From the IMG/VR virus record IMGVR_UViG_2547132519_000001, positions 32,001 through 96,000 of that record: a DNA stretch of 64,000 bases. One strand, written 5' to 3'. The notes beneath the pieces are model-generated. The model did not search any database. It saw only the letters and a program-made list of their open reading frames with translations, and was not told where the DNA came from. This DNA comes from a virus (lineage: Duplodnaviria; Caudoviricetes). A program made the translations under genes and the position numbers. The stretch's first letter is position 1. Each line of letters begins with the position of its first letter. Shown here piece by piece: positions 28,636 to 45,192 of the stretch.

Positions 28636-28669
28636 AGATAAAATATCCATTTCATAGGGAGGTAGAAAG

Positions 28670-28840
28670 ATGAAACCAGTTGATTATTTAATTACAGATT
28701 TACAGAGAATGAAAGATAAAAGAGAAAATATCTGTAAGGAACTTGGAAACGGATATGACTGGCAGTTGGTAGAAAGCTTAATTGCTATTGAGAACAAGAT
28801 TAAGCAGACCGCAGATAGAATTGCAGAAATGATGAATTAA
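28670..28840 (+). CDS. Hypothetical protein (56 aa)
   Basis: GGGAGG SD; MKPVDYLITDLQRMK... Confidence 0.6.
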   Translation: MKPVDYLITDLQRMKDKRENICKELGNGYDWQLVESLIAIENKIKQTADRIAEMMN

Positions 28841-28887
28841 CTAAAACAGAATACAATCAATCGATTATTTTATGAGGAGAAAACAAT

Positions 28888-29271
28888 ATGCTGCAAGAAT
28901 TGAAAATTGGAAAATGTATCGTCAATTCTGATGGAGATATTATTGAACTAGAACGCGAGTTTTACGGTCAAGGAATGATTTTTAAGGATGAACACGCATT
29001 TCGATACGAAGAAAAGATCCCGTGTTATGTGCCAGAATTATCTGACACAGTGTATACAAGGGAGGATTTTCTACGAATGTGTAATAATCAAGAAGATATA
29101 GCAAATGTGTTATTTGAATCCGTTGACTGGCAACACCCGGAAACATATTTAGATGAACAGTTTAAAGAAGAAGAAATGAACATTTGTAAGACTTGCGGAA
29201 AAATATTTCTTAGTTCTGAGGTTGAGAATTGCCCATATTGTGGAATTCTGGTGGCAGAAGAAATCTCATAA
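28888..29271 (+). CDS. Hypothetical protein with C-terminal zinc ribbon
   Basis: CKTCG...CPYCG. Confidence 0.7.
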   Translation: MLQELKIGKCIVNSDGDIIELEREFYGQGMIFKDEHAFRYEEKIPCYVPELSDTVYTREDFLRMCNNQEDIANVLFESVDWQHPETYLDEQFKEEEMNICKTCGKIFLSSEVENCPYCGILVAEEIS

Positions 29272-29308
29272 AATTATTCTTTCTTTTGAAAATTTGGAGG
29301 TAATCAAA

Positions 29309-29521
29309 ATGGTTAAATTAACAAGAACAGAATTAACATGGATTATTGGCGAAATAGATAAAAGTGTATCAAGTATTACAAATGACCTAAGTCGCTTTCA
29401 AAAAATGAGCACCATAGAAAAAGGCTTATTAGAACTTAAATGCGAAAATTTGACTACTATTTCAAATAAGCTACAAAAAGTGCTTAATGAAAAAGGCAAG
29501 CGAATTGCTATAGAACAGTAG
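29309..29521 (+). CDS. Hypothetical protein
   Basis: Start reassigned to MVKLT using GGAGG SD. Confidence 0.65.
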   Translation: MVKLTRTELTWIIGEIDKSVSSITNDLSRFQKMSTIEKGLLELKCENLTTISNKLQKVLNEKGKRIAIEQ

Positions 29522-29597
29522 AAAGAGGTATTTTATTACGGTATATCTCTTTTTTAATAGAAAAAGTTTAAACACTTCCAAGGCAAGAGGTGACACA

Positions 29598-29795
29598 GTG
29601 AAGAGAATTAAGAAGCTTAAAGGCTGGGGAATTTACCAGAACAATAATAAGGAGATAGAAGAACACAGATTCAATATAACAGTCTTACACCCGGATAATA
29701 TGGAATATGCTTATATGTGCAGCCCTTCAGACTCTGACATGGAATTCGATACGGTAGAAGCAGCTGAATGTTGGATCAATAACTATGATAAATGA
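29598..29795 (+). CDS. Hypothetical protein
   Basis: ORF track, GAGGTG SD. Confidence 0.65.
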   Translation: MKRIKKLKGWGIYQNNNKEIEEHRFNITVLHPDNMEYAYMCSPSDSDMEFDTVEAAECWINNYDK

Positions 29796-29842
29796 ATTGA
29801 GGATTTTAAATCTATATAGACAAGATAGAAAGAAGGAATATA

Positions 29843-30103
29843 ATGATAGCATATAGAAAAGGAAATGGAAAAATAAAAGAATTATTTGGATACGGAATCA
29901 TTGCAGATGATGTAATTAAAAACAATGGATATCAAAAAGTCGATGTCTTAGACATAGAAAATTATAAAGATATTCAATGGGAAGGAATTGAATTTAATCG
30001 TTTATTTATGAAAAATAATGTACTATACCGATTTAATGAATGGAATGTACTATATCCGTATAAAAGCTTGAATATTCAAGAGATAGGATTGATATCTGAA
30101 TAG
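29843..30103 (+). CDS. Hypothetical protein
   Basis: ORF track, SD. Confidence 0.65.
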   Translation: MIAYRKGNGKIKELFGYGIIADDVIKNNGYQKVDVLDIENYKDIQWEGIEFNRLFMKNNVLYRFNEWNVLYPYKSLNIQEIGLISE

Positions 30104-30131
30104 AATAGTACTTTCAAAGGAGGTTATAAAG

Positions 30132-30323
30132 ATGAGTTATGATATACAATTAACCGACAAGGAAGACATAAGAATAGGTGACACGATTTTGTGCAATGAC
30201 GGAAACATAAGAACAGTATGCCGTAATAATATAACAAGAGGATTTACGGGGTTGTGTATTTTTGGCGATCCTTACCGACTGGGATATGAAAAAGTTAAGA
30301 AAGTTATCAATTTAAAATTTTAA
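30132..30323 (+). CDS. Hypothetical protein
   Basis: ORF track, AGGAGG SD. Confidence 0.65.
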   Translation: MSYDIQLTDKEDIRIGDTILCNDGNIRTVCRNNITRGFTGLCIFGDPYRLGYEKVKKVINLKF

Positions 30324-30418
30324 TAAACGAATAATTTTATCCCCAGTTTGAAGCCATTGGACAGCGTTCCGGTGGCTTTTATAGTGGGAATAAATGAAAA
30401 TATATGGAGGATTATATT

Positions 30419-30994
30419 ATGAGAAAAGAATATACGATAGAACAGATGGCTGAAACAAGATGGTTTTATAGATTCACAGAGCCAAACGCAAAGGGCGAAA
30501 CACTTACAATCGAAATGTCCTTATGCACTAATAGTGGCGGAAGTCATGCGCTTCCGGTTTTATGGAAACAGCATGGATATATAGATAGAGTTTTAGAGAC
30601 ATACTGGAGTATATCAACGTATGTAAGAGACACAGAGGGCGCTTGTTATGGTCGCTATAATCCACAGCATAAATTAAGAGAAGATGGTAAAGGAATGGTA
30701 ATAAATTTTGATTGGATGTTTGATGCCACAGAAGATAATAAAGAAAGGTTATTTGATGAAGTGTATAGGTTATTTTCATCAGTAAAAGGTGAAACAGCTA
30801 CAGAAGAAAAGGTTAGAAAAGTAAAAGAATTTGCGAAAGAAAGAAATATTGAAGTTATGACAGAAATGCCAGAGGGATGGATTGATTTGGGTTATCGTAC
30901 GGCCCCAATTGGTTCAACTTATATGGGCAATATGAAATCTAATCGTCATAATCTTAGAGACGCAAACAGAAGAGAAGCACTACTATTAGTTTAA
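30419..30994 (+). CDS. Hypothetical protein
   Basis: ORF track, GGAGG SD before MRKEY. Confidence 0.7.
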   Translation: MRKEYTIEQMAETRWFYRFTEPNAKGETLTIEMSLCTNSGGSHALPVLWKQHGYIDRVLETYWSISTYVRDTEGACYGRYNPQHKLREDGKGMVINFDWMFDATEDNKERLFDEVYRLFSSVKGETATEEKVRKVKEFAKERNIEVMTEMPEGWIDLGYRTAPIGSTYMGNMKSNRHNLRDANRREALLLV

Positions 30995-31009
30995 GGAGGT
31001 AAATAACAC

Positions 31010-31255
31010 ATGCAAACTATCATTAAATATATAGAAGAAAAAACAAAAGTTTCTTTTGGGAGTATAAAAGATAGAGAGTGTTTTTATAGCGGAAGCGTTT
31101 TATATATGAAAATCTTACAGCAGGATTTAGACCATTTCAAAATAGATAATATAAATGCTATAAGCATTATAAATGCCGGTTTGACATTTTTTGATTTAGA
31201 TGAAACAGTATACAGAGCAGTTAGAGAAGTAGTGAAATTTAATAATAAACATTAA
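31010..31255 (+). CDS. Hypothetical protein
   Basis: ORF track, AGGAGG SD. Confidence 0.65.
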   Translation: MQTIIKYIEEKTKVSFGSIKDRECFYSGSVLYMKILQQDLDHFKIDNINAISIINAGLTFFDLDETVYRAVREVVKFNNKH

Positions 31256-31288
31256 CATTAAGATTATAGAAAGAAATGGGGCAATATT

Positions 31289-31759
31289 ATGAACATGGAT
31301 ATTTTGGCGGTAGATATTAAACATTTATCAACATATGATTTTCTTCAGGACGGAGAAACAGAGGAAGAACTTTTAAAACGTGCCAATGACTATAGACAAA
31401 ACAATATTGATTCATGGAATAAAAATTGCAAAGATTATCCATGCGAACGATTTGATCAGTATTTAAAAGAAGCATTTAACAAGGAATACAGGGTTATGAC
31501 ATGGAGCGAATTTGAACAGCTGCAAAGAGATTCTTATATTAACCAACCACTAGAAGAAACTACAGAGGAATGTTATGAAAATGCTTTGAATGTACTTCCT
31601 CCTTTAAAATGGTGCGCAATAGACGGAGTGGAAATGTTTTGTATGTCTGAAATGTATACGGGAACCTATACAAACCAGTATGCTAGGTATAAAGGGAAAT
31701 ATTATACAAAAATGGTTGATATTATGGATAAAACTACTTGGATTAATAATTATTTATAA
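31289..31759 (+). CDS. Hypothetical protein (conserved-looking LNVLPP...FCMSE motif)
   Basis: ORF track. Confidence 0.65.
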   Translation: MNMDILAVDIKHLSTYDFLQDGETEEELLKRANDYRQNNIDSWNKNCKDYPCERFDQYLKEAFNKEYRVMTWSEFEQLQRDSYINQPLEETTEECYENALNVLPPLKWCAIDGVEMFCMSEMYTGTYTNQYARYKGKYYTKMVDIMDKTTWINNYL

Positions 31760-31821
31760 GAAGATATAACAGTATAAGCGGATGAAAAGTAAGTTTCATT
31801 TAGAAAGCGGAGGAAAATAAA

Positions 31822-32298
31822 ATGGCCAAATATAAAATGATAATTAATACAGACAGATATGTTTGTAGAAGATGTAGTAAAAAGAATTGGGAACCAGGAA
31901 CAAGAAACGATTATATGCTTGCTATTAATGGTGTTACAAGAATGCTAAACAGCATGAAAGAGGTTATGTGGCAATTAGAATTATTTCATGGAAATTCCTT
32001 TCTTTCTTCTGAATACGACGAAGAGAAAAACAAAGAAGAGAATTATCATTTATCTGATAAATATATTGCATTCTTAAAAAAGAATGAAATAACGTATCAT
32101 GATAGGCTGTGCAAATTTGATAGAACACAATACTTGTCAGGCTACGGGTGGATGCAAGGTTATTTTTGTATTGGCAATGTTTTAAGCGAATTAAAAAATA
32201 ATGGATCAGTCAAGGTACCTTTTGAATGGCTTTATGATATGAGGCAGTACGATAAAAATATGAATGGCTGCTATATGGAAATTGTTAAAGTCAGTTGA
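31822..32298 (+). CDS. Hypothetical protein
   Basis: ORF track, GGAGG SD. Confidence 0.7.
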   Translation: MAKYKMIINTDRYVCRRCSKKNWEPGTRNDYMLAINGVTRMLNSMKEVMWQLELFHGNSFLSSEYDEEKNKEENYHLSDKYIAFLKKNEITYHDRLCKFDRTQYLSGYGWMQGYFCIGNVLSELKNNGSVKVPFEWLYDMRQYDKNMNGCYMEIVKVS

Positions 32299-32548
32299 AA
32301 GACGAATTTTATGTGTTAACATAGGATAATTTAAACAGAAAGGAAGAATTAGGAGGTAATGTTGATTGAATCATAATGATATACCATTAAACGAAATACG
32401 TGATTGGTTTAAATATGGTAAAAAATACAAATGGATCGAAGAACACTATAGTATAACAAGAGAACAAATTGAGGAATGTATCAGAAGGTTTGTTGAAGAA
32501 ACAATGGGAAGTTAATGAAAGGAAAATTTTATTCAAGGAGGATTAAAA

Positions 32549-32890
32549 GTGGACGCATTTACAAATAAAGAATTGGAAATTATCAGTAATGGATTATTAT
32601 GCTTGATCGCAAACGCTGGAAAGGCAAAGGGGCTTGTTATTGATGCTGCTTCACAGAATAGCATTGATGATTACATGAAAGCATTACAGACGCTAAATTC
32701 AAAGGTTTGCAAAGCAGATAGAGGGGCAGGAGATGTGCCAAGCCGCAGAGAATTGAGAATAGAGGGAGTTTTATATTTTTCTATGTTGGAGAATGAAACA
32801 GAAGAACATGCGAAGGAGCGATTTTGGAAATCGGCGTATGAATCAGGTATTATTATCAATGATGATTGTTGTTCTTATGACATTCAATAG
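32549..32890 (+). CDS. Hypothetical protein
   Basis: ORF track, AGGAGG SD. Confidence 0.65.
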   Translation: MDAFTNKELEIISNGLLCLIANAGKAKGLVIDAASQNSIDDYMKALQTLNSKVCKADRGAGDVPSRRELRIEGVLYFSMLENETEEHAKERFWKSAYESGIIINDDCCSYDIQ

Positions 32891-32929
32891 GGGTAATCAA
32901 ATTGTAATTTGATTCTGAAAGGAGTAAAT

Positions 32930-33115
32930 ATGATTGATTTATTTATTGGAAATTATGAAAGAATTTTAGGAAATAGAGTATTTATAAAACAAAAAGAAAA
33001 ATTTGTTTCAGGAACTCTTGAGAGTTTTTTGTTTGATGGAAATAAAAAACTCAACGTAAAACTCGATAATGGAAAACTTATTAAAACGGATAGAGTATAT
33101 GTAGATAGAAAATAG
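32930..33115 (+). CDS. Hypothetical protein
   Basis: AAGGAG SD before MIDLF. Confidence 0.6.
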   Translation: MIDLFIGNYERILGNRVFIKQKEKFVSGTLESFLFDGNKKLNVKLDNGKLIKTDRVYVDRK

Positions 33116-33136
33116 ATTTTAATGGAGGAAAATATA

Positions 33137-33388
33137 ATGAATAATTTTAAACCAATTTGTTGTAATAACAACGAGTGTGATTTCTGGAACGATAATAAAT
33201 GTCTTTACGGAGGAACTGGAGAAATAACTCCAAATCCAGAAAATGAAAGTGATTGTAAGTCATTTGAACCATTTAATGAAGAGGACGAAGAAAATAATTG
33301 CTGTACCTGTAGATATTATTCTGGATCTTGTGATTTAAATGGGAGTGGTTGTCGGACGGCACTATTAGAATTTTATGAGCGTAGATAA
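33137..33388 (+). CDS. Cys-rich hypothetical protein
   Basis: GGAGG SD; two Cys clusters. Confidence 0.65.
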   Translation: MNNFKPICCNNNECDFWNDNKCLYGGTGEITPNPENESDCKSFEPFNEEDEENNCCTCRYYSGSCDLNGSGCRTALLEFYERR

Positions 33389-33438
33389 AAAACAGGTTTT
33401 ATGTGATTGTAATGGATAAAATAAGATAGGAGAGAGTT

Positions 33439-33765
33439 GTGACAAGAAGAAATATTATATTTAAAGATAAAAATACAGGTAAGCTATACGTATCTCCCGA
33501 ATTTAATGGAGATAAACGAGAAATAGAAAATCGTGGCTTTAATCTTGATAGCTATTATAAGAACTGGGATGAAATTTTGAATGATTTTATTGGAATAATG
33601 ACTTTATACGACTTTAAAATGATCAGTAGAAAAGTCCAACGATATGGATCTAGTTTTCTTGGCGAGGTTGAAATACTTCCAGTAACACAGATACACGATA
33701 TTGGTCAGATTGAAAATGATGAGGTATATCTTTTATATAATGGAATAATTAAGAGAGTCGTATAA
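33439..33765 (+). CDS. Hypothetical protein
   Basis: ORF track, AGGAG SD. Confidence 0.65.
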   Translation: MTRRNIIFKDKNTGKLYVSPEFNGDKREIENRGFNLDSYYKNWDEILNDFIGIMTLYDFKMISRKVQRYGSSFLGEVEILPVTQIHDIGQIENDEVYLLYNGIIKRVV

Positions 33766-33932
33766 AAAGCACATTTTATGAGGAGAAAAGGTGATAATAT
33801 GGACGGTAACAGCAGTAAAAGCAACAATGGAAAGGATATATACATATACGACACAGAAGGCCACTATACGTGGCACAGTAGCTTTGCAGAGGCACTTGAA
33901 GACGTAAGGAAATCTATGAGAAAGGAATAGTC

Positions 33933-34157
33933 ATGGTAAACACAGTCAAAAGCTACGATGATTCGTATAGTTACGGATCAGTTATACATAAGCGAAAAAC
34001 AAGTCAATTAAATAAGTTTCGCAGGATTATGGGAAGCATTTTATTTCTGCTTTCTTTTTTTGTGCTCTATAAACTGCCAGATCAGAGCGGTAATTGGACA
34101 TTGACGGCCTGTATGTTAATTTTGGCGGTTGCATTATTTTACATTGGGAGGAATTAA
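33933..34157 (+). CDS. Small two-TM membrane protein
   Basis: Two hydrophobic segments. Confidence 0.6.
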   Translation: MVNTVKSYDDSYSYGSVIHKRKTSQLNKFRRIMGSILFLLSFFVLYKLPDQSGNWTLTACMLILAVALFYIGRN

Positions 34158-34384
34158 AAGTGAAGTTTAGATATGTACTAGATAATGATAAACAAATAAA
34201 AGTGTACCGTGGAGATATGTACCTGGGTAAATATAAAAGTTTTGACGAGATTTTTACTCTAATTATGGCGATTACTTGAGACGCGGCCTTGTCGGTTATC
34301 CAATCGGATTGTAAAAGCCGTAGCCTTCAATGGCAATCAAGGCATTTCTGGCAATTCAAAATAAATTAAAAAGGAGAAATTAAT

Positions 34385-34576
34385 ATGAAATATGGTGTAT
34401 TAGAAGAATGCAAAGATTTTATTAAGATTAAACAGGCTTTTGGGCACAGAACTTTAAGATATTATCAAAATCAATTAGAGGAGTATCTGAATAAGCAATC
34501 AGAAGAACACCCGGCTATTGTGTGTTGGTATACGGGGACAATGAGCACAGAAGATTTTATAGTGATGTGTAGTTGA
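34385..34576 (+). CDS. Hypothetical protein
   Basis: ORF track, AAGGAG SD. Confidence 0.6.
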   Translation: MKYGVLEECKDFIKIKQAFGHRTLRYYQNQLEEYLNKQSEEHPAIVCWYTGTMSTEDFIVMCS

Positions 34577-34609
34577 ATGAAGTCTTTTATTGAGAAAAGG
34601 AGAGAAAAA

Positions 34610-34969
34610 ATGAAAGAAATAGTAATAGGTTCTGATAAACAACCAAATTTTAACAGTATGACTTTATGGGAATGGGCTCCAATTTCAGAAAACTCTATAT
34701 TTTACATACTCGAAAATGATCTGTTTGAAAACATTATCTTGTATGTTGATAAAAATTCTAATGAAGGAGAAGATCTTAAAAAATGGTTAGATATAGACAC
34801 AAATAGAAACAAACAATCTGTTTATGAAAAAGCATTGGAATTATTAATACCTTGGTTAAGCACGGAAGATTTGTATGAAGCTTTTACGGTAAAATCTAAA
34901 AAAGCGCATGAAGATGGGTATAGAAGAGCACAGATAAATATATGCAAGGCTCTTGGTATCGGTAGATAA
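34610..34969 (+). CDS. Hypothetical protein
   Basis: AAGGAG SD before MKEIV. Confidence 0.65.
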   Translation: MKEIVIGSDKQPNFNSMTLWEWAPISENSIFYILENDLFENIILYVDKNSNEGEDLKKWLDIDTNRNKQSVYEKALELLIPWLSTEDLYEAFTVKSKKAHEDGYRRAQINICKALGIGR

Positions 34970-34996
34970 AAGCGTGATTTGATGGGAGGAATTGAA

Positions 34997-35371
34997 ATGG
35001 AAAATTTTTTGAGATTTGAATATTATAGAGCCTTAGATGAATCATTTTCTTACATGGTTGGCGATTTAAAAGATAGATTTGCAGATGATACCATTCTTCT
35101 CTCAAATGAGAGCGGAAAATGGAGTGTAGTAAATAAGGCGCTTTACAGTGCAGAAACAAGAAATATTGTTGAAGAAGAGGTGGAGAAATATTTCGATAAT
35201 AAGAGAAATGAAGTAATCCGTCTTATATTAGAAGAAGATTTTCTTCCATTAAATATTCAAATTATAAGAGAAGACTCTGGCTTCAAAACAGCAATGTACG
35301 AAATGATTCAAGAGGGTACATTAAGATTTAGAAATTGTGAAGGCGCGGCCGTTGAGCTGAATGAGGCGTAA
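34997..35371 (+). CDS. Hypothetical protein
   Basis: GGGAGG SD before MENFL. Confidence 0.65.
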   Translation: MENFLRFEYYRALDESFSYMVGDLKDRFADDTILLSNESGKWSVVNKALYSAETRNIVEEEVEKYFDNKRNEVIRLILEEDFLPLNIQIIREDSGFKTAMYEMIQEGTLRFRNCEGAAVELNEA

Positions 35372-35390
35372 ATTGAAAGGAGAAAGAGGT

Positions 35391-35621
35391 ATGGCTGATT
35401 ATAAGATGGATTATATAAAGACTCTAAGAGACGAGGATATGGTGTGGATTCAAAAAGATGGTGACGACGCTGAGATTAAACAGCTCATAGGCATTGATAC
35501 AGGGCAGAAATACGGAATAGGGGATAGCGTTGTACGTGTAAATATTTCTACAAAACCTAATGACGTGCTTAAATGCCAATGGAATGGAAGGACTTTCTAT
35601 TATGTTGTATTAATCCGATAG
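35391..35621 (+). CDS. Hypothetical protein
   Basis: AAGGAG SD before MADYK. Confidence 0.6.
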   Translation: MADYKMDYIKTLRDEDMVWIQKDGDDAEIKQLIGIDTGQKYGIGDSVVRVNISTKPNDVLKCQWNGRTFYYVVLIR

Positions 35622-35685
35622 ATGAAATCATGGCGTTTTGTTATACACTGTACCCTATGTCTGTATAAAATGAGGTTAATTAAAT

Positions 35686-35946
35686 ATGTGTAAGTTTTGT
35701 GAGCGTAGAAGAGATGTTGGGTTAGGTTGGCAGCAACCAGAGCTTGAGAACCTACGTGGGAATATTGTTGAAGAGTTAGAGTTTAAGGCAGTGATTCATG
35801 TTTACCAGACGGCTAATCCAGAATTGATTATATCTTCTCATAGATTCTTCCCTGATGTAATTGGAACGGAAGGTATAGCAAAAATTTATATTCCTATAAA
35901 ATTTTGTCCTTACTGTGGTAGAGAATTGGGAAAACAGAGTAGATAA
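35686..35946 (+). CDS. Zn-binding small phage protein
   Basis: MCKFC...FCPYCGREL. Confidence 0.7.
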   Translation: MCKFCERRRDVGLGWQQPELENLRGNIVEELEFKAVIHVYQTANPELIISSHRFFPDVIGTEGIAKIYIPIKFCPYCGRELGKQSR

Positions 35947-36122
35947 AAGAGATATTTTATAAGAGAGTATAATTTGGGTAAATATGTCTTTGAACGTAAA
36001 AATAAGAGCTGAATTGTCGAAAAATATGTTAATAAATATGTTGTTGTAAACGCAAATGTGTATTATAATATATTTGAAATTACGGCCGTATTTCAAATAT
36101 AATCTTAATAAGGAGAGATAAA

Positions 36123-36599: not shown

Positions 36600-36620
36600 T
36601 AAAATTAATAATGTTAAATA

Positions 36621-36656: not shown

Positions 36657-36722
36657 GTAGACAAAAGAAGTTTTTAATTTTTAATAATAAATGCACAATT
36701 TCAAAGAAAAAAGGAGAATGTA

Positions 36723-37501: not shown

Positions 37502-37592
37502 ATAGTTAAATAATAATATGGCTAGCAACGGTCAAATGTTGCTGGCTATTTTCTTGCAAATATAGAGAATAAAAGCGGAGACATAATATAAT

Positions 37593-37775: not shown

Positions 37776-37799
37776 ATCTGGAATTTTAAACAGTAACAT

Positions 37800-38102
37800 A
37801 TGAACGTCGAGGTGATATATTTGAAAAAACATGAAAAGCAAGATTGGATAGTGCAGTATGTTAAAATGTCAAAATTAAAACATGTGGACATTTTTGATGA
37901 AGAATTTGTAGAAACCTATATTGATTGCTGCCAACCTAAAAAAGTAATAGTGCAGCCATATGGTGCTCATACCGTTCCGGAACTTGGAAAGTATCTAAGT
38001 GAACTATACCATTCCAATGTATTAAATAGAGTATCTATAGGTTTGACGCAATGTTATTCAGGTTTTCCAAGATGGTGTTACTCATATTATTTGAGAAATT
38101 GA
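37800..38102 (+). CDS. Hypothetical protein
   Basis: ORF track. Confidence 0.6.
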   Translation: MNVEVIYLKKHEKQDWIVQYVKMSKLKHVDIFDEEFVETYIDCCQPKKVIVQPYGAHTVPELGKYLSELYHSNVLNRVSIGLTQCYSGFPRWCYSYYLRN

Positions 38103-38114
38103 AGGAGAGAATTT

Positions 38115-38300
38115 ATGCTAATATGGTTTAAGTGTGAAAAGGAAAATTTAATGTTGGGAGTAGAAACAGACACAAAACCCACACTAGGAGACACAGTACT
38201 AGTCAAGAGAAAGGAATATAACGTTGATAAAGTGACATGGTGCTTAGAGCAAGCGCCTGTACAATCTGGATTATTGATAAAAATATCCCCAATAGATTAA
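38115..38300 (+). CDS. Hypothetical protein
   Basis: ORF track, AAGGAG SD. Confidence 0.6.
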   Translation: MLIWFKCEKENLMLGVETDTKPTLGDTVLVKRKEYNVDKVTWCLEQAPVQSGLLIKISPID

Positions 38301-38344
38301 TAGGGCGTAAAACTCACATTTGACTGTGAAAAGGGGAGGTACAG

Positions 38345-38632
38345 ATGTTGATGAATGAATATGGAGATATAATTTTCATCACAAAGTATTATTATAGAGA
38401 CGATATAAACCCAAATACTACATTTTACAGCGACAGACTTTATCAGTGGGATTGGGAAAAATATAATAAGTGCCATAAAGAAATGTTTTGTAATTATGAT
38501 TTTGCAAATATTGAAAAGTTCCTAAATCTATATTATCCAAACCGCAATTTGAAACTGATTTATGTTGAACAGCAAGAAAATGCAAGCAACGGATTTCCAT
38601 ATTGGAGATTCGAGTGTCACATGGATAAATAA
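38345..38632 (+). CDS. Hypothetical protein
   Basis: ORF track, GGGAGG SD. Confidence 0.65.
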   Translation: MLMNEYGDIIFITKYYYRDDINPNTTFYSDRLYQWDWEKYNKCHKEMFCNYDFANIEKFLNLYYPNRNLKLIYVEQQENASNGFPYWRFECHMDK

Positions 38633-38965
38633 GAGTTTATCAATGTTGTATTTGATGAACAGGAGGTAAAATACATGAATAATTTTACAGAACAGATCCC
38701 GGAGCATGTATCACCGGAAGTCAGAGATAAGTGCAACAATTAGTGGCGTAACTCTAATGCGTCATGATATAATAGGAAGAAAATGAAAAGGGTGGTAAAT
38801 AAAATGCCAGTATTTATAATAATTATAGCTTGGATTATTTATTTGATCTGGGACAAATACCAAAGGGAAGTCCCATCATCAAAAAGGAATATTGATTTTG
38901 TTAAGCGTTATAATGAGCTATACAAAGATATGCCTGATATGCAAATTAAGTAAAGGAGTGGTTAT

Positions 38966-39226
38966 ATGGAGTGGAAAGATTTGAGTAACGAAGCAAAGTC
39001 AATTATAGAGTGGGTAGAAGATCCACGCTCAAATAAAAGGCGGACGGTCGAGGTAGAACTAAATAAAGAATTTGTGTTTCCGATGAGTTTTGATGGCATG
39101 CCTAAAAGTATTATGGTTACAAAAGATTTGTACAAAGAAGTATTAAAGTTTGCGACTGAGGATAAAAACTTGTTTTGTGAACAATTTTTAGATGGATTGA
39201 TATTTAGTGCTCACGGTAAATGTTAG
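38966..39226 (+). CDS. Hypothetical protein
   Basis: ORF track, AAGGAG SD. Confidence 0.65.
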   Translation: MEWKDLSNEAKSIIEWVEDPRSNKRRTVEVELNKEFVFPMSFDGMPKSIMVTKDLYKEVLKFATEDKNLFCEQFLDGLIFSAHGKC

Positions 39227-39269
39227 ATTTTATAGACTTACGCAATAAGGATAGGAAAGTAATTTTTCG

Positions 39270-39479
39270 ATAAGTGCAATACTGGAACAAGGTGAAATAG
39301 TAGATGATAGCGGAGAGTACGAGCGATATTATTCTGATTCTCCTGGTGGCGAATTTATTAGGTTAAAGATTATTAATTATGACGACAAATTATACGTATA
39401 CAAAGAAAAGGTAACTGAGGATAGACAGCTCAATAAAAAATCAGAATGCGTCGCATTTTATGAGTTAAAATGTGAGTAG
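39270..39479 (+). CDS. Hypothetical protein (no ATG; probable ATA start)
   Basis: Open 69-codon frame ISAILEQGEIVDDSGEYE...LKCE between two boundary motifs. Confidence 0.45.
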   Translation: MSAILEQGEIVDDSGEYERYYSDSPGGEFIRLKIINYDDKLYVYKEKVTEDRQLNKKSECVAFYELKCE

Positions 39480-39508
39480 AAACTATATTTGATGAAGGGA
39501 AGATAATT

Positions 39509-39736
39509 ATGTTCAGAGAATATATGCAAAAATTGTCAGATCAACAATTAATAGATGCATTTGGAGAACTACAAGACTCGCAAAGTTTGGGAATATTAAA
39601 ACCTGGTGGAGAAGTAAGAAGGTTGATGGGAGTATATAAAGATTTTTATTCAACTACTGAACCTTCTATTTCAACGGTTGAGAAGGAAATTTATTATGAA
39701 ATGGCTATGAGATATTACGTGGGAAAAGAACGGTAA
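39509..39736 (+). CDS. Hypothetical protein
   Basis: ORF track. Confidence 0.6.
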   Translation: MFREYMQKLSDQQLIDAFGELQDSQSLGILKPGGEVRRLMGVYKDFYSTTEPSISTVEKEIYYEMAMRYYVGKER

Positions 39737-39769
39737 AATGATTCTTTGATATAGATAAAAGGGGATAAA

Positions 39770-40078
39770 ATGTTTGGACTATTGCTTGCAGGATTATTTG
39801 GTAAAGGGGCTCATACGGCTTATAAAGATATAGAATTTGATGCAAAAGCTCAAGCAGCTGGTCATAGGCTGCTCATAGGCTGCAATTCATCGAATGAGGT
39901 TATTAGAACTAAATGCATTTTTTCTGATACTCCTGATATGCCTAGGTTAACAGATATAGAGCTTAGCACTATAGAAGAATGGTATAGTAAGAATGGCGGG
40001 GTAAGCAGAGAAATTATGATGGGTTATTATAAACAAACCGGCAAATTTTTATTTGATGCCGTAAGAGAAAAACAATAG
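39770..40078 (+). CDS. Hypothetical protein
   Basis: ORF track. Confidence 0.6.
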   Translation: MFGLLLAGLFGKGAHTAYKDIEFDAKAQAAGHRLLIGCNSSNEVIRTKCIFSDTPDMPRLTDIELSTIEEWYSKNGGVSREIMMGYYKQTGKFLFDAVREKQ

Positions 40079-40351
40079 AAAGCCACTGGATAAATCTGGT
40101 GGCTTTTATGATGGTGAAATAGTATAATGGAGGGTATAGAGAGGTACAAAGTAGTGTAAGAAATTTAAGGAGATACTCTATGAAAAGATATATGAATGAA
40201 CCAGTAGATTATGTATTTACAGATGAGGACGTAGTTAAGGAGTATAAAAGATTTAGTGATATAAAAAGAACGGCCTCAGTGTTTTGTATAGATGCTAAGA
40301 TCGTTAAACAAATCTTGAAGAAAAAGGGAGAAAGATAGAAAGGAGATTTTT

Positions 40352-40624
40352 ATGAATTTTATACCTAAATTTGAGAATGGAAATAATGAAACTTTATTAT
40401 TAGATACTCCTTTTTATGTGGAATGTCTTAAGTACGCAGATGAACATAAATTAAATGTACTTTATACCGAAACGGAAAGCACTAGCGCAGTCGAGACGAT
40501 TCTAGAATTTAAAAAGCGTGGATACTCTCATGGATTATATGAAGTGCCTACGTTTGCACCAGGTGGGCTGAGATTGGGAAATAAGATATATTGTAGATTT
40601 ACTAGAAAAATAATTGATAAATAA
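40352..40624 (+). CDS. Hypothetical protein
   Basis: ORF track, AAGGAG SD. Confidence 0.65.
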   Translation: MNFIPKFENGNNETLLLDTPFYVECLKYADEHKLNVLYTETESTSAVETILEFKKRGYSHGLYEVPTFAPGGLRLGNKIYCRFTRKIIDK

Positions 40625-40637
40625 AAAGGGAGGAAAA

Positions 40638-41027
40638 ATGGATAAAAAAGACTTTAATATAGGTCAAACTGTATACTTAAAAGTTATACCAGGAAGCAAT
40701 GCCTCAAGGTATATAGATAAATCCAATCCAGATGAATGGATTAAAGAACGGGTTGTAATAAAAATTGGAAGTAAGTTTCTAACGGTGGCTATTGATAATG
40801 AAAATAGAGGCGGGGAGGAAAAATTTCATATCCAAAACATTTCTACTCATCGTCATGATGTTGGGCAAAATTATAAACTCTATTTAACCAAGGAATCAAT
40901 TTTAGAAGATCAAGAGTGTGAGAATTTGTATCGCAAAATAAAAAATGGATTCTCCGATTGGGGGAATGAAGGAAAATATTCATTGGATCAACTTAGATGT
41001 ATTATTAAAACGTTGGAGTTGAAATGA
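40638..41027 (+). CDS. Hypothetical beta-barrel-like protein
   Basis: GGGAGG SD; FNIGQTVYL and VIKIGSKFLTV. Confidence 0.65.
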   Translation: MDKKDFNIGQTVYLKVIPGSNASRYIDKSNPDEWIKERVVIKIGSKFLTVAIDNENRGGEEKFHIQNISTHRHDVGQNYKLYLTKESILEDQECENLYRKIKNGFSDWGNEGKYSLDQLRCIIKTLELK

Positions 41028-41049
41028 TTATTTGATTGGAGGGATTACC

Positions 41050-41403
41050 ATAGGTTACGATATGTATTTGATTAAAGCCGACAAAAGGAAGTTAAGCACT
41101 CTTGATGGTCTGAAGATATATTACGAAGAAATGGAAAGGGCTACAATATCTGATATAAATAGTTATGATCCCATATTGAGAAGGTTCCACAACGATAGAG
41201 AAGATTTAAGATGGGTATGGGAAGAATACAACTATATACCGAGTGATGTATTCTCCGATATTGTGAACTGGTTAAAAGAAAAGATAGAAAATGAAGATTT
41301 CGAACCTGGTTATGATAGAATGTATAGAATGGTCTATGACAACATTAAGGATTGGTTGCCATTAAGAAAATATGAAGCAGTGTTTTTTGAAGAAGATGCT
41401 TAG
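41050..41403 (+). CDS. Hypothetical protein (probable ATA start)
   Basis: GGAGGG SD 6 nt before ATA. Confidence 0.55.
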   Translation: MGYDMYLIKADKRKLSTLDGLKIYYEEMERATISDINSYDPILRRFHNDREDLRWVWEEYNYIPSDVFSDIVNWLKEKIENEDFEPGYDRMYRMVYDNIKDWLPLRKYEAVFFEEDA

Positions 41404-41438
41404 AACACATAAAATAATAGATTTATAGGAGGCTATCA

Positions 41439-41639
41439 GTGAGTGATAATATTTTTACTAAACCAGATAGACCATTTTTGTTATTAAGCGAAAACAATAA
41501 TTCTGTGGTTAGCTACTTTTGGTGCGAGACTGAAGAAGAGCTTCAAGAAGTTGCAAAAGATCTGATTGCAGATGGAGACAAAGTGATTGAATCTATCGAA
41601 ATTGGAAGTTGTCGCGATATAGATATAAAAATCTTATAG
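41439..41639 (+). CDS. Hypothetical protein
   Basis: ORF track, AGGAGG SD. Confidence 0.6.
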   Translation: MSDNIFTKPDRPFLLLSENNNSVVSYFWCETEEELQEVAKDLIADGDKVIESIEIGSCRDIDIKIL

Positions 41640-41647
41640 GAGATTTT

Positions 41648-41869
41648 ATTGAAAAAATCATAGCTACGTATAAAAATGCGGTTGAACAGGGGTTTGACAG
41701 TATTGTACTTGTGATAGATGCAGATGTTGATGAGACATATTATATCAATGATACCGTAAATGGATTCCAGTGCGATAGTTTTGATTACTATTTTGATGAC
41801 TTAGGTTCAGTTGCTGAGGAATTGTTTAACAGAATAAATGGTAATGTTACTGAAATAAAAATAGAATAG
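41648..41869 (+). CDS. Hypothetical protein (probable ATT start)
   Basis: AGGAG SD 5 nt before ATT. Confidence 0.5.
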   Translation: MEKIIATYKNAVEQGFDSIVLVIDADVDETYYINDTVNGFQCDSFDYYFDDLGSVAEELFNRINGNVTEIKIE

Positions 41870-41882
41870 GGGAAACAGTAAG

Positions 41883-42140
41883 ATGAAAACGTTATGTGAT
41901 TTAGAAGAGATGAAGAACAAAGGGCACGATTCTTATGAAAATTATTATGATTATTTTATCGCATACTTATCACATTGCTACGTGTCTAAACTGAGCGGAT
42001 TTGCAATTGTAAAATCAGAATTGTCAAAATGGGATAATGAGTCTCAATTTGTTATATTAACAAAGCTGATTGAAGAATTGAGAGAGATGGATATGCAGTC
42101 TGGGTATGATAAACTATTAGAGTTGTTAAATGAAAATTGA
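41883..42140 (+). CDS. Hypothetical protein
   Basis: ORF track. Confidence 0.6.
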   Translation: MKTLCDLEEMKNKGHDSYENYYDYFIAYLSHCYVSKLSGFAIVKSELSKWDNESQFVILTKLIEELREMDMQSGYDKLLELLNEN

Positions 42141-42159
42141 GATTCAAGGAGGAAACCAA

Positions 42160-42339
42160 GTGAATAGCTTTGAAAAGGAACAAGATAAAATTTTAATGTT
42201 AGAAAAGATGAAAGAAGATTTCTGGGAAACTAAGACTAATGAAGATTCATCATACGAAGAAGTAGAAAGAGATTTTAATGAAATGATAATAGCACATGAG
42301 GCTGATGAAAGAGAAATGGGTATAGAAGAAGATGTATAA
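42160..42339 (+). CDS. Small acidic protein
   Basis: AGGAGG SD before GTG; very Glu-rich. Confidence 0.6.
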   Translation: MNSFEKEQDKILMLEKMKEDFWETKTNEDSSYEEVERDFNEMIIAHEADEREMGIEEDV

Positions 42340-42528
42340 GATGGAAGATTAAAATCTAAGATTTAAGGCGTTGTTTTCATAAAATTTTAAGGCGGATTTA
42401 GACACTAACGAAAGATCCTATTATAATTGGATAGGAAATATACCGGTGTCTAATTGTGATGTATACTCAGCAAAAGGATATGTGATTTTGCAAAGGCAAG
42501 ATGAAGTTTTAATATAAGAGGTGTAATT

Positions 42529-42933
42529 TTGATAAACGAAAATCAAGTTGTTGACTATATCTGTAAATATTTAGAGGACAATAAATATACTGTTGATGAG
42601 CATCGAAATACCTATGAAAGGGGTTATGACATTGTCGCATTTAGCAAAGACGGTAAAAAGCTAATTATTGAAGCCAAGGGTGGTACAAGTTCAAAGCCTG
42701 GAACAAATCGTTTTGGGAAGGATTTTGATAGTAAACAAGTTAGACATCATATTGCTATGGCACTTTATGCGGTTGGTAAAGCCATAACCTCTGATCCGGA
42801 ATGTGAAGTTGGTATTGCAATACCTAAAAACGATGAACACATAAAGGCTTTGAAAAGAATACGGAAGGTTATTGATGTTCTGACGATTAGAGTTTATTGG
42901 GTTTCCTCTAATGGTGAAGTTACTGTTGAATAA
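42529..42933 (+). CDS. PD-(D/E)XK restriction-endonuclease-fold protein
   Basis: E...GYDIVA...IIEAKG motif. Confidence 0.75.
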   Translation: MINENQVVDYICKYLEDNKYTVDEHRNTYERGYDIVAFSKDGKKLIIEAKGGTSSKPGTNRFGKDFDSKQVRHHIAMALYAVGKAITSDPECEVGIAIPKNDEHIKALKRIRKVIDVLTIRVYWVSSNGEVTVE

Positions 42934-42976
42934 TCATAATGAAACTAGGGATTTATTTAAAAAGAGGGGATTATCT

Positions 42977-43567
42977 GTGAAATTACTTAATTACTACCGC
43001 ACCATTGAAAAATTCTGGCATATTGGGGAGAAATGGGATAAATTATCTCCTTCAGAAAAAAACGCTATTGAGTTTGCTCACACAAATATAAATCCAGAAC
43101 CAAATCGAATGGCTGCTGATGGAATTCACTACTCTTTAGAATATTGTCTTGCACATTCGGGGGAAAGAATCAATGAAAGATATCGTCGTGACAGGCCAGA
43201 TCCGATTGATTTACAGATTGCTGATATGATTGCTAACCATAGAACTAAAATTCCCGTCGTACTTTATCGGGGCGTATGTGAAGCTGTCTTTCGTAAGATG
43301 TGTGAAAATGCACAACATATAGACAATGCTGATTTTTATGAAAAAGCATTTTTACAAACATCTCTTGTAAAAGGACATGAAATCAAGTCACAATACCACT
43401 TGAGAATCTACGTACCAGAGGGGGCACAGGCAATTTATTTGGGAAATGTGAACTACGAACAGAAATACTATGAAGTAGTTTTGCAGTGTGGATCAAGGCT
43501 CAAAATCATTTCCATGGACAATAAATATATAAATTGTAGGCTTTTATTAGAATATGAATATAAATAA
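42977..43567 (+). CDS. ADP-ribosyltransferase (VIP2/exoenzyme-like, R-S-E type)
   Basis: VLYRG, FLQTSL, YYEVVL motifs; GTG start after GAGGGG SD. Confidence 0.75.
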   Translation: MKLLNYYRTIEKFWHIGEKWDKLSPSEKNAIEFAHTNINPEPNRMAADGIHYSLEYCLAHSGERINERYRRDRPDPIDLQIADMIANHRTKIPVVLYRGVCEAVFRKMCENAQHIDNADFYEKAFLQTSLVKGHEIKSQYHLRIYVPEGAQAIYLGNVNYEQKYYEVVLQCGSRLKIISMDNKYINCRLLLEYEYK

Positions 43568-43591
43568 TTGATTTAATATTATGGGGGAAGC

Positions 43592-44917
43592 ATGGATACA
43601 ACTGACGATATTCTGAATAGACAAGTTTTTCTGGAAAACCTAAAAAAAATAGTGGAGATGCTATCTAATGAAAGAAAAAGTAGCACGTTTGCAATTAACG
43701 GTGAATGGGGAAGTGGTAAATCGTTCGTACTAAAACGCTTTATAGAAGATATTGAAAATATTCAATCAGAAGATACGGTGTCGGAGAAATATTTAGTATT
43801 TTATTATGATTGTTGGAAATATGATTATTATGAAGAACCATTAATCGCAATTATAGCAGCGATGTTTGAAATGGCAGAAGAAAAGTTAAAGTTTCTTAGT
43901 ACAACATATGATAAAACAATGAAAGCGACTTGGAATACTGTAAAGAATAGCTTGGAAACTATAGCTGGAGAGTTTTGTAAAAGCAAAATAGGATTTGATC
44001 CATATAAGTTTATAGGTGATGTAAAAAAGGAATATAAGGAGGTAACAAATAGTAGACACGAATTTGATAATATGTTTTCTTTTAAATTAACTCTTGATAC
44101 TATAAAAAAACAATTGCAGAGATTAGCAAATAATCATACTATTATTATTATAGTTGATGAAATCGACAGATGCTTGCCAGTATATGCGATTAAAATACTC
44201 GAGCGATTGCATCATACTTTTTTTGATATTAAAAATGTTATAGTGATAATAGCAGTTGATGGTGATCAATTGGATAATACAATCAAACAAATTTATGGGC
44301 AAAATACCAACGTCAATAGATATCTTAAAAAATTTATAGATTTCAAATTAAACTTAGATATAGGCAAGACTAATTTAAATTATGCAGAAAAATATTTATC
44401 TTATTTTAGTAAATTCTATGTTAACTCAGAATTATATGAAGTAATGGAGGTCCTAGCAAGTTTACTTGATAATATTGATATGAGAACACAAGAAAAGTTG
44501 TTCAATAAGGCCGATACTATACATAGGATTGTTAGTAGTGAGAAAAATGATATCTCTTTGTTATTTTTTGAAATGATGTGGATAATTTTGACTTATAAAC
44601 AAGATTCTCAAAATCTTAGGTGGGTAGTAAGTGGGGATAACAGTTTTAAAATTACTAGAAGTGAAAATGACATGGAAATTAAAATTAAGGAAATTGCTGA
44701 TCAATATTGTGGGCCTTCTTGCGCAAGAATTGATGGTAAAGATTATTTAATTGTTAAAAATTCAGCGGTGGGTAAGTCGTTTTTTTACTTATCTTCAATA
44801 TACAATAATTTAGAAAATGGTACTTGTGGAATCCACTTTTTTGATAACGCAAATGAATTAATGGATGAAATATTAAAGGCTCAGAATTTTGTTTCTCTGA
44901 CGTACCTAATTCAATAA
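43592..44917 (+). CDS. KAP-family P-loop NTPase
   Basis: GEWGSGKS Walker A, IIIVDEIDRC Walker B, YLKKFID. Confidence 0.9.
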   Translation: MDTTDDILNRQVFLENLKKIVEMLSNERKSSTFAINGEWGSGKSFVLKRFIEDIENIQSEDTVSEKYLVFYYDCWKYDYYEEPLIAIIAAMFEMAEEKLKFLSTTYDKTMKATWNTVKNSLETIAGEFCKSKIGFDPYKFIGDVKKEYKEVTNSRHEFDNMFSFKLTLDTIKKQLQRLANNHTIIIIVDEIDRCLPVYAIKILERLHHTFFDIKNVIVIIAVDGDQLDNTIKQIYGQNTNVNRYLKKFIDFKLNLDIGKTNLNYAEKYLSYFSKFYVNSELYEVMEVLASLLDNIDMRTQEKLFNKADTIHRIVSSEKNDISLLFFEMMWIILTYKQDSQNLRWVVSGDNSFKITRSENDMEIKIKEIADQYCGPSCARIDGKDYLIVKNSAVGKSFFYLSSIYNNLENGTCGIHFFDNANELMDEILKAQNFVSLTYLIQ

Positions 44918-45192
44918 AATCATCGTTTTACGAGATTAGAAATAAACACTTGTCAAGACATTAGCGTCTTGTGGGTTGAAAATGTTGGTTTAGTAGGGTT
45001 TGTAAATAGTTAGAAGGCATTGGAGAATTATTATCCAGTGCCTTTTATAGTATCTATAAATTAGTGATCAGGAAAGGAAGTAAATATTATGCAAACACAA
45101 TCAATAGAAAACGCACAGAGTAATGTGATTCAATTGTAAGCGCTACATAAAGAAGTGTATTGATCTTTCTGGATTTTTCACCTCTCGAAAAA

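Follow-up and report, generated by a model that had tools for sequence, protein, structure and literature searches.

The question raised by this stretch of DNA is why one short palindrome recurs between the small genes of a bacteriophage, always with a spacer of six bases and each time with other letters in that spacer. The stretch (the window) comprises 64,000 nucleotides, bases 32001-96000 of the 134,298-bp virus record IMGVR_UViG_2547132519_000001. The initial annotation listed the palindrome, of the form WTRAAA-N6-TTTYAW, at 33 places between 28638 and 44931, and took it for an integron-like array of gene cassettes that ends just upstream of a tyrosine recombinase gene. By gene content, the source virus is a distant SPbeta-like phage. 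It encodes a YonO-type RNA polymerase of 915 aa (19467-22214, minus strand) with 43-47% identity to those of SPbeta, the Psychrobacillus phage Perkons and others; terminase and structural genes occupy the minus strand to ~24 kb, and an arm of small plus-strand genes starts at ~26 kb. Neither megablast nor blastn found a DNA-level match to the array in a phage collection. We find that the palindrome is a genome-wide trait of the SPbeta clade in which each site keeps its own centre, and that the sites may serve as addressed joints for the exchange of genes between related phages.

The letters quoted in the initial annotation were present at all 33 listed coordinates. Measured against the core pattern TRAAA-N6-TTTYA, with mismatch classes assigned by eye, 8 of these sites were exact (28638, 31782, 32295, 32515, 33385, 33762, 35943 and 44914), 20 carried one mismatch, four carried two (28856, 32896, 39476 and 43560), and one, a shifted palindrome at 38624, carried four. 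The strict 18-mer WTRAAA-N6-TTTYAW occurred 11 times in the window against 1.29 expected, and at least 11 copies were seen in 0 of 100 dinucleotide shuffles, which confirms the enrichment over shuffled controls. Between 28 and 45 kb, the exact pattern TRAAA-Nx-TTTYA was found nine times at N6 and 0-4 times at each other spacing from N0 to N15, while at N6 the everted arrangement of the half-sites occurred once and the direct arrangement not at all. Allowing up to one mismatch, the array held 40 copies at N6 versus 12, 17, 19 and 17 at N4, N5, N7 and N8. As the neighbouring spacings give 12-19, we take about 23 of the 40 to be real and the others to be AT-rich background.

The whole 134-kb genome contained 26 exact copies at N6 versus 1-10 at other spacings, and all 26 had distinct centres, so that the fixed spacer length and the site-specific letters described earlier both stand. 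The excess was clear in the early arm (genome 56-134 kb; 20 exact copies at N6 versus 1-8 elsewhere, and 98 versus 40-82 with one mismatch), and no clear excess was observed in the late arm (exact, 6 versus 0-5; one mismatch, 42 versus 27-49). Generic 6-bp palindromes at N6 were only weakly enriched (14 versus 4-15); the signal is specific to TRAAA/TTTYA. Placement at most gene junctions was too strong a statement, the share being about a quarter to a half, and the array is not confined to 28638-44931, since exact sites also lie at 50031, 58159, 60033 and 63775 and in the rest of the early arm. The same half-sites showed a smaller second peak at spacer 13 in genome 56-134 kb (window 24001 onward), with 8 exact copies versus 1-4 at most other spacings and 82 copies with one mismatch.

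We then determined how the motif is distributed across related phages. SPbeta carried 29 exact sites between 65 and 134 kb, versus 0-6 at other spacings, and 7 copies in the rest of its genome, all seven of them between annotated genes. SPbeta, phi3T, SPR, Goe14 and SPbetaL4 contained 34-45 copies each, versus 0-8 at spacings N3-N9, and Perkons contained 52, versus 1-13 at other spacings and 6 for a control pattern. Motif and control counts were 13 and 6 in genome G001 and 49 and 15 in genome G002; those of the D-1873 contig, 13 and 8, point neither way. Among the IMG/VR records with a gene for a YomM-like tyrosine recombinase, the motif was at least as frequent as its reversed control in 35 of 35, giving 1161 motif copies versus 179 control copies when summed by hand; the weak cases were 8 versus 7, 11 versus 7, 15 versus 6 and 11 versus 4. 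The sole record without a YomM-like gene had 0 motif copies and 2 control copies. AT-rich Firmicute phages of similar size from outside the clade showed no excess (Staphylococcus K, 5 versus 5; Listeria A511, 2 versus 3; Bacillus SPO1, 1 versus 0). What looked like a local array is thus found genome-wide and throughout the clade, SPbeta included.

We compared the six-base centres of the sites between genomes. In G003, whose YomM is 88% identical to that of this phage, blastn detected only six short patches of homology to the array. The two genomes nevertheless had 20 same-centre site pairs, and in 19 of these both 80-bp flanks aligned at null score. Seventeen of the 20 pairs were colinear, compared with a mean of 6.7 and a maximum of 11 when centres were shuffled among the G003 sites (1000 trials) and with at most 7 at random positions (200 trials); the centre shuffle leaves the number of shared centres unchanged, so that only the colinearity figure is informative. 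These colinear anchors are the strongest result for addressed joints. Comparison with G001 gave 17 same-centre pairs, 10 of them without flank similarity, and the pairs of open reading frames (ORFs) flanking the G001 anchors had no significant blastp match in 11 of 12 cases. The distances between successive anchors differ between genomes (for example 280 versus 164 bp, and 811 versus 1503 bp).

At base resolution, 24 anchor pairs (16 with G003, 8 with G001) fell to background identity directly outside positions 0-15, and the degenerate arm positions 1 and 14 had changed in 8 and 10 of the 24. Because the wobble positions have changed and identity is limited to the 16-bp core, the anchors appear to be old, diverged sites whose centres have been kept. 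In the SPbeta family, a further 51 pairs of sites, representing 17 distinct centres, agreed in their centre although both 80-bp flanks scored at the null level; 0.3-0.44 such pairs per genome pair are expected by chance. The initial annotation had treated the spacer heterology as noise that the enzyme tolerates; instead, every site retains in relatives the centre particular to it, and the order is unchanged. A protein that reads only the arms is unlikely to account for this, as the centres stay constant while the flanks are replaced and the wobble positions of the arms drift. Twelve of the 33 listed sites are anchors with G003 and six are anchors with G001. The sites are given below in window coordinates.

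28638..28655: site, exact, centre TATCCA; same centre, colinear in G003
30100..30117: site, one mismatch, centre TAGTAC; colinear same-centre partner in G003, flanks without similarity
31782..31799: site, exact, centre AGTAAG; same centre in G001, where ~330 bp are inserted directly after it
32295..32312: site, exact, centre GACGAA; left-arm TGA is the stop of ORF 31822-32298; G001 homology stops at 32307, within the site
32515..32532: site, exact, centre GGAAAA
33105..33122: site, one mismatch, centre AATAGA; colinear same-centre partner in G003
33385..33402: site, exact, centre AACAGG; left-arm TAA terminates ORF 33122-33388; colinear same-centre partner in G003
33762..33779: site, exact, centre AGCACA; TAA terminates ORF 33439-33765; colinear same-centre partner in G003
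34573..34590: site, one mismatch, centre GAAGTC; colinear same-centre partner in G003
34966..34983: site, one mismatch, centre GCGTGA; colinear same-centre partner in G003
35943..35960: site, exact, centre GAGATA; same centre, colinear in G003 and G001, flanks unrelated; a metagenome contig joint ends at 35943
36687..36704: site, one mismatch, centre GCACAA; colinear same-centre partner in G003
36902..36919: site, one mismatch, centre TCAGGA; same centre in G001, ORFs on either side without blastp match
37076..37093: site, one mismatch, centre TAAGTG; colinear same-centre partner in G003
41019..41036: site, one mismatch, centre TGATTA; same centre, colinear in G003 and G001
41409..41426: site, one mismatch, centre TAATAG; same centre in G003 and G001; G001 homology begins at 41402, the downstream ORF being 55% identical and the upstream ORF unrelated
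42349..42366: site, one mismatch, centre TCTAAG; same centre in G001, colinear, flanks without similarity
44914..44931: site, exact, centre TCATCG; TAA is the stop of the KAP-family NTPase gene 43592-44917; last site before the split integrase gene; a metagenome contig joint begins at 44928, within the site
28856, 29268, 29519, 29792, 30323, 32896, 37772, 38307, 38624, 39216, 39476, 39733, 42130, 42939 and 43560: the other 15 listed sites, spanning 28856..43577
50031..50048: site, exact, centre GAACTG; outside the listed range
58159..58176: site, exact, centre GAGGGA; outside the listed range; colinear same-centre partner in G003
60033..60050: site, exact; outside the listed range
63775..63792: site, exact; outside the listed range; TAA is the stop of ORF 63041-63778
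15369..15386: site, one mismatch, centre TCCGCC (minus-strand reading); the YomM-like gene ends at a stop codon in the left arm

The other 15 listed sites comprise ten with one mismatch, four with two and one with four. None of them has a same-centre partner in G001, G003 or G004, and some are likely to be AT-rich background. At the 28638 site, a 33-bp block (28641-28673) that contains the site centre, right arm, ribosome site and ATG matches G001 at 97% identity between unrelated flanks, and it recurs in a metagenome contig (X4) that is unrelated upstream of 28640 and downstream of 28672. In the G001 counterpart the left arm is degenerate, and the conserved block lies off-centre relative to the site. 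From this block, some exchanges would seem to end just after the start codon.

We compared SPbeta with phi3T, SPR, Goe14 and SPbetaL4 and found that homology ended within 25 bp of a site centre in 58 of 324 cases, against 4.2 expected at random places, and within 15 bp in 45 cases (2.2 expected). Because phage mosaics break at gene borders anyway, junctions were then compared with junctions, using the annotated early-arm genes of SPbeta. At least one breakpoint was present in 21 of 24 junctions with the motif, versus 39 of 95 without it (Fisher p 5.5e-5), and when only gaps of 20-150 bp were considered, in 14 of 16 motif junctions versus 24 of 48 others (p 0.009). Base-level alignments showed homology beginning at the first base of a site or stopping at its last base. 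At site 87599, comparisons with phi3T and SPbetaL4 both showed the left arm next to a centre that matches, letter for letter, the one at SPbeta site 88400.

The idea that breakpoints in relatives fall at the motif was therefore borne out at site junctions, and failed for insertions and deletions (indels) that run from site to site: among the five SPbeta-family genomes, 0 of 46 clean indels were bounded by sites at both ends. By size and place, many of the clean indels look like mobile insertions. Since no indel has sites at two ends, excision or shuffling from site to site within a genome is not in the record, and the capture and shuffling of single-gene cassettes proposed in the initial annotation was not seen. 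Taken together, the retention of centres in their order, the replacement of the cassettes between them and the lack of site-to-site deletions point to exchange between matching sites of different phages. An identical core of 12-16 bp is very short for general recombination, given the minimal homology lengths that it requires.

Joints in independent DNA were also inspected. In metagenome runs X2-X4, where contigs of related phages were matched at 90% likeness, 6 of 11 joints that skip part of the array ended within 5 bp of a listed site (28856, 29268, 29792, 30323 and 37772 among them), which is weak evidence given the short sides of the joints, the small shares that these runs contain and their origin from other organisms. 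One of the 11 ran from site to site (29788 to 30322, at sites 29792 and 30323), and in another joint 38101-39769 was replaced by 38 letters that hold a single site.

The architecture of the sites gave further insight into how they could be read. The SPbeta consensus, approximately tcTAgA-TAAAA-N6-TTTTA-TctAgA, is dyad-symmetric with an 11-6-11 layout, and those of Perkons and of this phage are RA-TRAAA-N6-TTTYA-TY and gA-TRAAA-N6-TTTYA-W, with only ~6-7 conserved bp per arm in the latter. Flank preferences around the core were roughly symmetric. The inverted 5-6-5 arms (11-6-11 in SPbeta) agree with the tyrosine-recombinase core-site layout recognised in the initial annotation, and judging from the letters, such symmetry is what a dimer on double-stranded DNA would be predicted to give. 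A hairpin of RNA or single-stranded DNA, an extended hairpin included, was rejected. The letter at R in one arm is independent of that at Y in the other, with counts of AT 17, GC 10, AC 14 and GT 11 in Perkons (n = 52) and AT 7, GC 8, AC 6 and GT 5 in this phage (n = 26), and none of 12 flanking position pairs was more complementary than in shuffles, so that there is no sign of selection for pairing.

With respect to genes, the preceding one often ends on a TAA or TGA of the left arm, and a Shine-Dalgarno-like sequence follows 1-23 nt past the site in 17 of 29 early-arm sites of SPbeta, 25 of 41 of Perkons and 9 of 20 of this phage, at a variable distance. Promoter identity was rejected, as no -10-like element lies at a fixed distance from the sites. 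The array held 106 promoter-like sites versus 91.3 (standard deviation 10.4) in shuffles and 5 terminator-like sites versus 4.7, with no excess of either. No strong fixed upstream pattern emerged when 99 gene starts were averaged, and no lone capture site or cassette promoter stood out in the array. Identity with a YonO promoter was rejected because the late operon has one YonO start, as the part of PMC5467207 available describes for the whole operon, and because motif density is higher in the early arm. Identity with SPBRE, the box of the repressor MrpR, was rejected as well, SPBRE being a different, non-palindromic sequence; 9 of 10 promoter regions identified for MrpR by chromatin affinity purification sequencing (ChAP-seq) had the SPBRE box in common and not the palindrome. 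Upstream of aimR in SPbeta (L002 26171-26260, record 76171-76260), the palindrome directly adjoins an SPBRE box and promoter as a separate element; this is the one place where both repeats of SPbeta sit side by side.

Two genes of the tyrosine-recombinase family lie in the window, and one of them is interrupted by an insertion sequence (IS).

15383..16414, minus strand: YomM-like tyrosine recombinase, 343 aa, intact; Pfam Phage_integrase and SAM-like N domain
45089..45135, plus strand: first 15 codons and two bases of a 261-aa tyrosine-recombinase-family gene
45128-45135 and 47775-47782: 8-bp target duplication ATTCAATT
45136..47774, minus strand: IS66-family element, 2639 bp, with terminal inverted repeats at 45136 and 47774
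45193-46794, minus strand: tnpC, 533-aa IS66-family DDE transposase (E 5e-90)
46883-47236: TnpB-like / IS66 Orf2-like gene
47783..48521, plus strand: remaining 246 codons of the split recombinase gene; Pfam Phage_integrase (E 1.9e-15), phrog_216 integrase

The recombinase gene reported at 45089 does start there, and is cut after codon 15 by the IS66-family element; without the IS it would encode a 261-aa Phage_integrase protein with the R, K, HxxR, H and Y motifs. The gene is broken in this genome. Nor does the array end just upstream of it, as the motif is found throughout the genome and the whole clade. In the probable source run X1, the 2639-bp IS contig had a depth of 2589.6 versus 655.6 for the phage, about four times, and the host carries further IS copies, since loose ends at 45136 lead into other flanks. 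The intact YomM-like protein has its best solved relatives in XerA (E 4.3e-5) and XerD (E 0.0038), has all of the catalytic positions R, K, H, R, H and Y, and is 33% identical to SPbeta YomM and 31% to the Perkons gene. Its gene is among only six that this phage, SPbeta and Perkons have in common by blastp. From the co-occurrence of motif and gene in one clade, we speculate that this protein is a candidate reader or enzyme of the sites. The IS-split recombinase at 45089 is another, equally speculative candidate for the enzyme.

We propose the following mechanism. A dimeric phage protein would read double-stranded (A)TRAAA-N6-TTTYA(T) sites, and the own six-base centre of each copy would be its address. 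The copies would sit in short gaps between accessory early genes, often with a left-arm TAA or TGA serving as stop codon for the preceding gene. When related phages meet, DNA would be exchanged between sites with the same centre, crossing-over taking place, as we infer, inside the site, and the genes between two differently addressed sites would be replaced with the gene order undisturbed. Such an exchange would resemble recombinase-mediated cassette exchange at heterospecific lox/FRT sites, or dif modules. To the proposal that the sites are addressed joints for cassette exchange between related phages we give about an even chance, working from sequence comparison. More tentative is the suggestion that the exchange is performed by a tyrosine recombinase, for example the YomM-like protein. 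Equally tentative is the fuller picture of a natural cassette exchange in which a clade-conserved Xer-like recombinase would act on 30-80 mutually orthogonal, 6-bp-addressed sites per genome.

One functional parallel is an engineered one. Heterospecific lox/FRT sites of Cre and Flp have identical arms and different centres and are thereby orthogonal, and a cassette between two unlike sites swaps for another with the same flanking sites, with no deletion or inversion. The phage sites are similar in their alike arms, distinct centres, kept order and lack of site-to-site indels; they differ from the engineered system, which has 13-bp arms and 8-bp centres. We know of no natural phage system with dozens of orthogonal sites. 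The dif site of the Xer system is 28 bp long, and the phage sites resemble it in having inverted arms around a strictly 6-base centre (11-6-11, or 28 bp, in SPbeta) and in the presence of a phage-encoded Xer-family recombinase with its catalytic residues.

Many pdif sites, each with two arms and a 6-bp centre, are scattered in the accessory regions of Acinetobacter plasmids, where they lie on either side of discrete blocks of adaptive genes that turn up again on other replicons, and the presumed enzyme is of the Xer type, XerC/XerD (Mindlin et al. 2019, available portion of PMC6449649). The arms of pdif are unlike each other, with a XerC side and a XerD side, and the enzymes are those of the host, whereas the phage sites have alike arms, which suggests one protein, and a phage-encoded candidate. 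The phage sites also lie between nearly adjacent small viral genes and keep their own centres in conserved order, and mobile whole modules of the dif type, running from site to site, were absent among the 46 indels of the SPbeta family. A second parallel is provided by the PeSL cassettes of T4-type phages, a repeated intergenic element of hyperplastic small-gene regions that is thought to drive modular shuffling; the portion of Arbiol et al. (2010, PMC2839356) available describes a strong sigma-70 promoter and a terminator hairpin, recombination by homology, and mini-circles between neighbouring copies. As with PeSLs, boundaries of replacements and indels between relatives fall at the phage element. 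Unlike PeSLs, the phage sites show no fixed -10, co-varying stem, promoter or terminator excess, or site-to-site deletions, and their conserved block is only 16 bp long with a unique centre.

Several observations weigh against exchange at the sites. The anchors were chosen by their identical centres, so that the constancy of the centres is in part a consequence of the selection. In a rate test free of this bias, 0 of 42 centre positions had changed versus 16 of 756 flank positions, but no more than 7 pairs could be used, a set too small to decide. G004 has 6 centres in common with this phage, where ~3.6-7.7 are expected by chance, and these are not in order. Of the 46 clean indels, 17 had a site at one end, which was left in place, and 29 at neither end. 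Sites stay with their downstream flank in 71 pairs and with their upstream flank in 36, a bias that would also be expected of a 5' control element of the next gene. With regard to the enzyme, SPbeta YomM and the Perkons homologue have K at the second catalytic R. An exact site lies within -15 to +70 of the stop of the YomM-like gene at 34 of 78 related loci, which is only about twice the junction average of roughly a quarter, and many of these loci are near-identical prophages. Finally, in the laboratory hybrids of phi3Ts and SPbeta (Hyb1-3), 7 of 13 parent switches could be resolved to 29-87 bp, and a site was present in 0 of these 7. The other six fell within stretches of 1.4-18 kb that are identical in both parents, and four of six ends of those stretches coincide with sites, as read from the listed coordinates. 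According to the available part of bioRxiv 10.1101/2020.05.06.055103, 15 of 16 hybrid junctions lay in homologous regions. As the resolved switches lack sites and the authors' junctions lie in homology, ordinary homologous recombination suffices for the hybrids, and the hybrid data neither show nor exclude exchange at the sites.

Some of the observations just described bear on a different reading, in which the palindromes would be dispersed operators, akin to stoperators, bound by a dimeric protein (helix-turn-helix or MrpR-like) that silences or times the early arm. The breakpoint link would then be a secondary effect, each site forming part of the expression unit of the gene after it, and both the downstream bias and the 17 indels that stop at one side and leave the site intact, with none of 46 running from site to site, fit such a unit. 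The dyad 5-6-5 geometry, the short gaps and the many copies per genome would likewise suit an operator, and there are precedents. In the available parts of PMC3029335 and PMC9283540, L5 gp71 and Bxb1 gp69 bind 24 and 34 stoperators, respectively, mainly in short intergenic gaps and each through one phage protein. The cluster O mycobacteriophages carry more than 30 copies of a 17-bp dyad repeat, denser in the small-gene arm and with a dimer predicted as its reader (PMC4351075, in the part available). The SPbeta clade has itself turned the recombinase fold into a repressor: SPBRE is a repeated intergenic element of the same clade whose reader (MrpR/YopR/SroF) has a tyrosine-recombinase fold, as far as the portions available of PMC10516654 and bioRxiv 10.1101/2025.11.27.690993 describe it. 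These precedents differ from the phage sites in several respects. Stoperators are 13 bp long, asymmetric, oriented with transcription and monomer-read, and have no free centre or per-site address, whereas the core of the phage sites is dyad-symmetric. In the cluster O repeat, 7-bp arms enclose three centre bases, mostly TTT, and few if any of its copies were involved in indels among five genomes (PMC4351075, same part), whereas breakpoints are enriched at the sites in the SPbeta family. SPBRE is a 15-26 bp non-palindromic, monomer-read box with AATATGTATA at about ten promoters (same portions of PMC10516654 and bioRxiv 10.1101/2025.11.27.690993), and all ten MrpR ChAP-seq peaks in the available part of PMC10516654 are at SPBRE and thus at a different box. 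The distance of the palindromes to a -10 or ribosome site is not fixed, and an arms-only reader gives no reason for own centres that stay in order between unrelated flanks while the wobble positions drift (8 and 10 of 24). We regard an operator as the main alternative, possible but less likely than exchange.

An element acting in RNA is far less probable, and we consider it very unlikely. It would be an AU hairpin, or a processing or translation signal before the ribosome sites of the early mRNA, and the Shine-Dalgarno-like sequences at 1-23 nt after the sites and the common overlap with stop codons are compatible with it. A 5-bp A-U stem is unstable, there is no extended pairing, the arms do not co-vary (A-C occurs in 14 of 52 Perkons sites, as independence predicts), the distance to the ribosome site varies, and dyad symmetry would be meaningless to a reader of single-stranded RNA. 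Slightly less probable still is the integron-like array as originally described, in which cassettes would be captured, excised as circles and reshuffled in one genome with unlike centres tolerated. Its layout of site, ribosome site, ORF and site in one orientation is seen, a recombinase-family gene begins 158 bp past the last site, and the single metagenome joint from site 29792 to site 30323 is of the kind that it predicts. However, the sites are only 16-18 bp long, with no co-varying arms and no attC-type fold; no capture site, cassette promoter or excess of promoters or terminators accompanies them; the 26 distinct centres are conserved and colinear in relatives instead of shuffled; and none of the 46 SPbeta-family indels has sites at both ends. 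The sites span the whole early arm and the clade's phages generally, and continue, to 63775, on both sides of a recombinase gene that marks the array's downstream end and is IS-split, yet the array resembles those of relatives. The integron model as written is largely refuted. That there is no element at all, and that AT-rich intergenic composition, TAAAA stop contexts and U-rich leaders at a preferred gap length produce the pattern, has the least probability of all, close to none. A real stop codon does lie in the left arm at many sites, and ~17 of the 40 one-mismatch hits are background, but the peak is sharp at N6 only, with none for everted or direct arrangements, no excess is seen in phages K, A511 and SPO1, averaging over the 99 starts brought out no strong fixed upstream pattern, and the order of whole sites is conserved between phages. 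The spacing profile, together with the phages used as negative controls, refutes this explanation.

If the sites are exchange joints, they would provide a mechanistic reason why mosaic boundaries in large phages fall at gene borders, and would account for the trading of accessory genes, anti-defence genes among them, with synteny kept. Co-infecting or resident relatives would swap accessory genes slot by slot, with the order never scrambled, in what would amount to programmed phage sex for anti-defence and other accessory genes, and the clade could yield dozens of natural orthogonal recombination sites. If they are instead operators for silencing or timing, they would reveal that the clade has another genome-wide regulator in addition to MrpR. 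Although SPbeta is a model phage, no description of a 30-50-copy palindrome in SPbeta-like phages, and no account of binding, cutting or exchange at such a site, was found in the literature searched, which did not reach the 1999 genome paper, and a term look-up in bioRxiv 10.1101/2021.11.22.469490 returned neither 'palindrom' nor 'motif'.

The genes around the sites were also examined. ORF 36123-36599 had no relative among viral contigs. The distal end of the array (40614-44917) looks like accessory or conflict cargo and encodes the following.

40614-41027: ProQ C-terminal-like phage protein
42529-42933: NOV_C-like protein
42911-43567: ADP-ribosyltransferase-like protein
43592-44917: KAP-family P-loop NTPase gene

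Downstream, a 680-aa ORF (51633-53675) has an unusual combination of sigma-70 region 2 (E 4e-6) and a GmrSD/ParB-like N-terminal nuclease domain (E 3e-8), and a Nampt/NAPRTase-like gene (61569-63041) lies within a nucleotide or NAD salvage cluster. In run X1, the assembly of 39869-40857 was broken into several contigs of 61-760 bp. The same segment showed a bump in depth (848.9 versus 655.6), with loose ends at 40092 and 40133 that are common to run X3, and it may be a short repeat or a variable segment.

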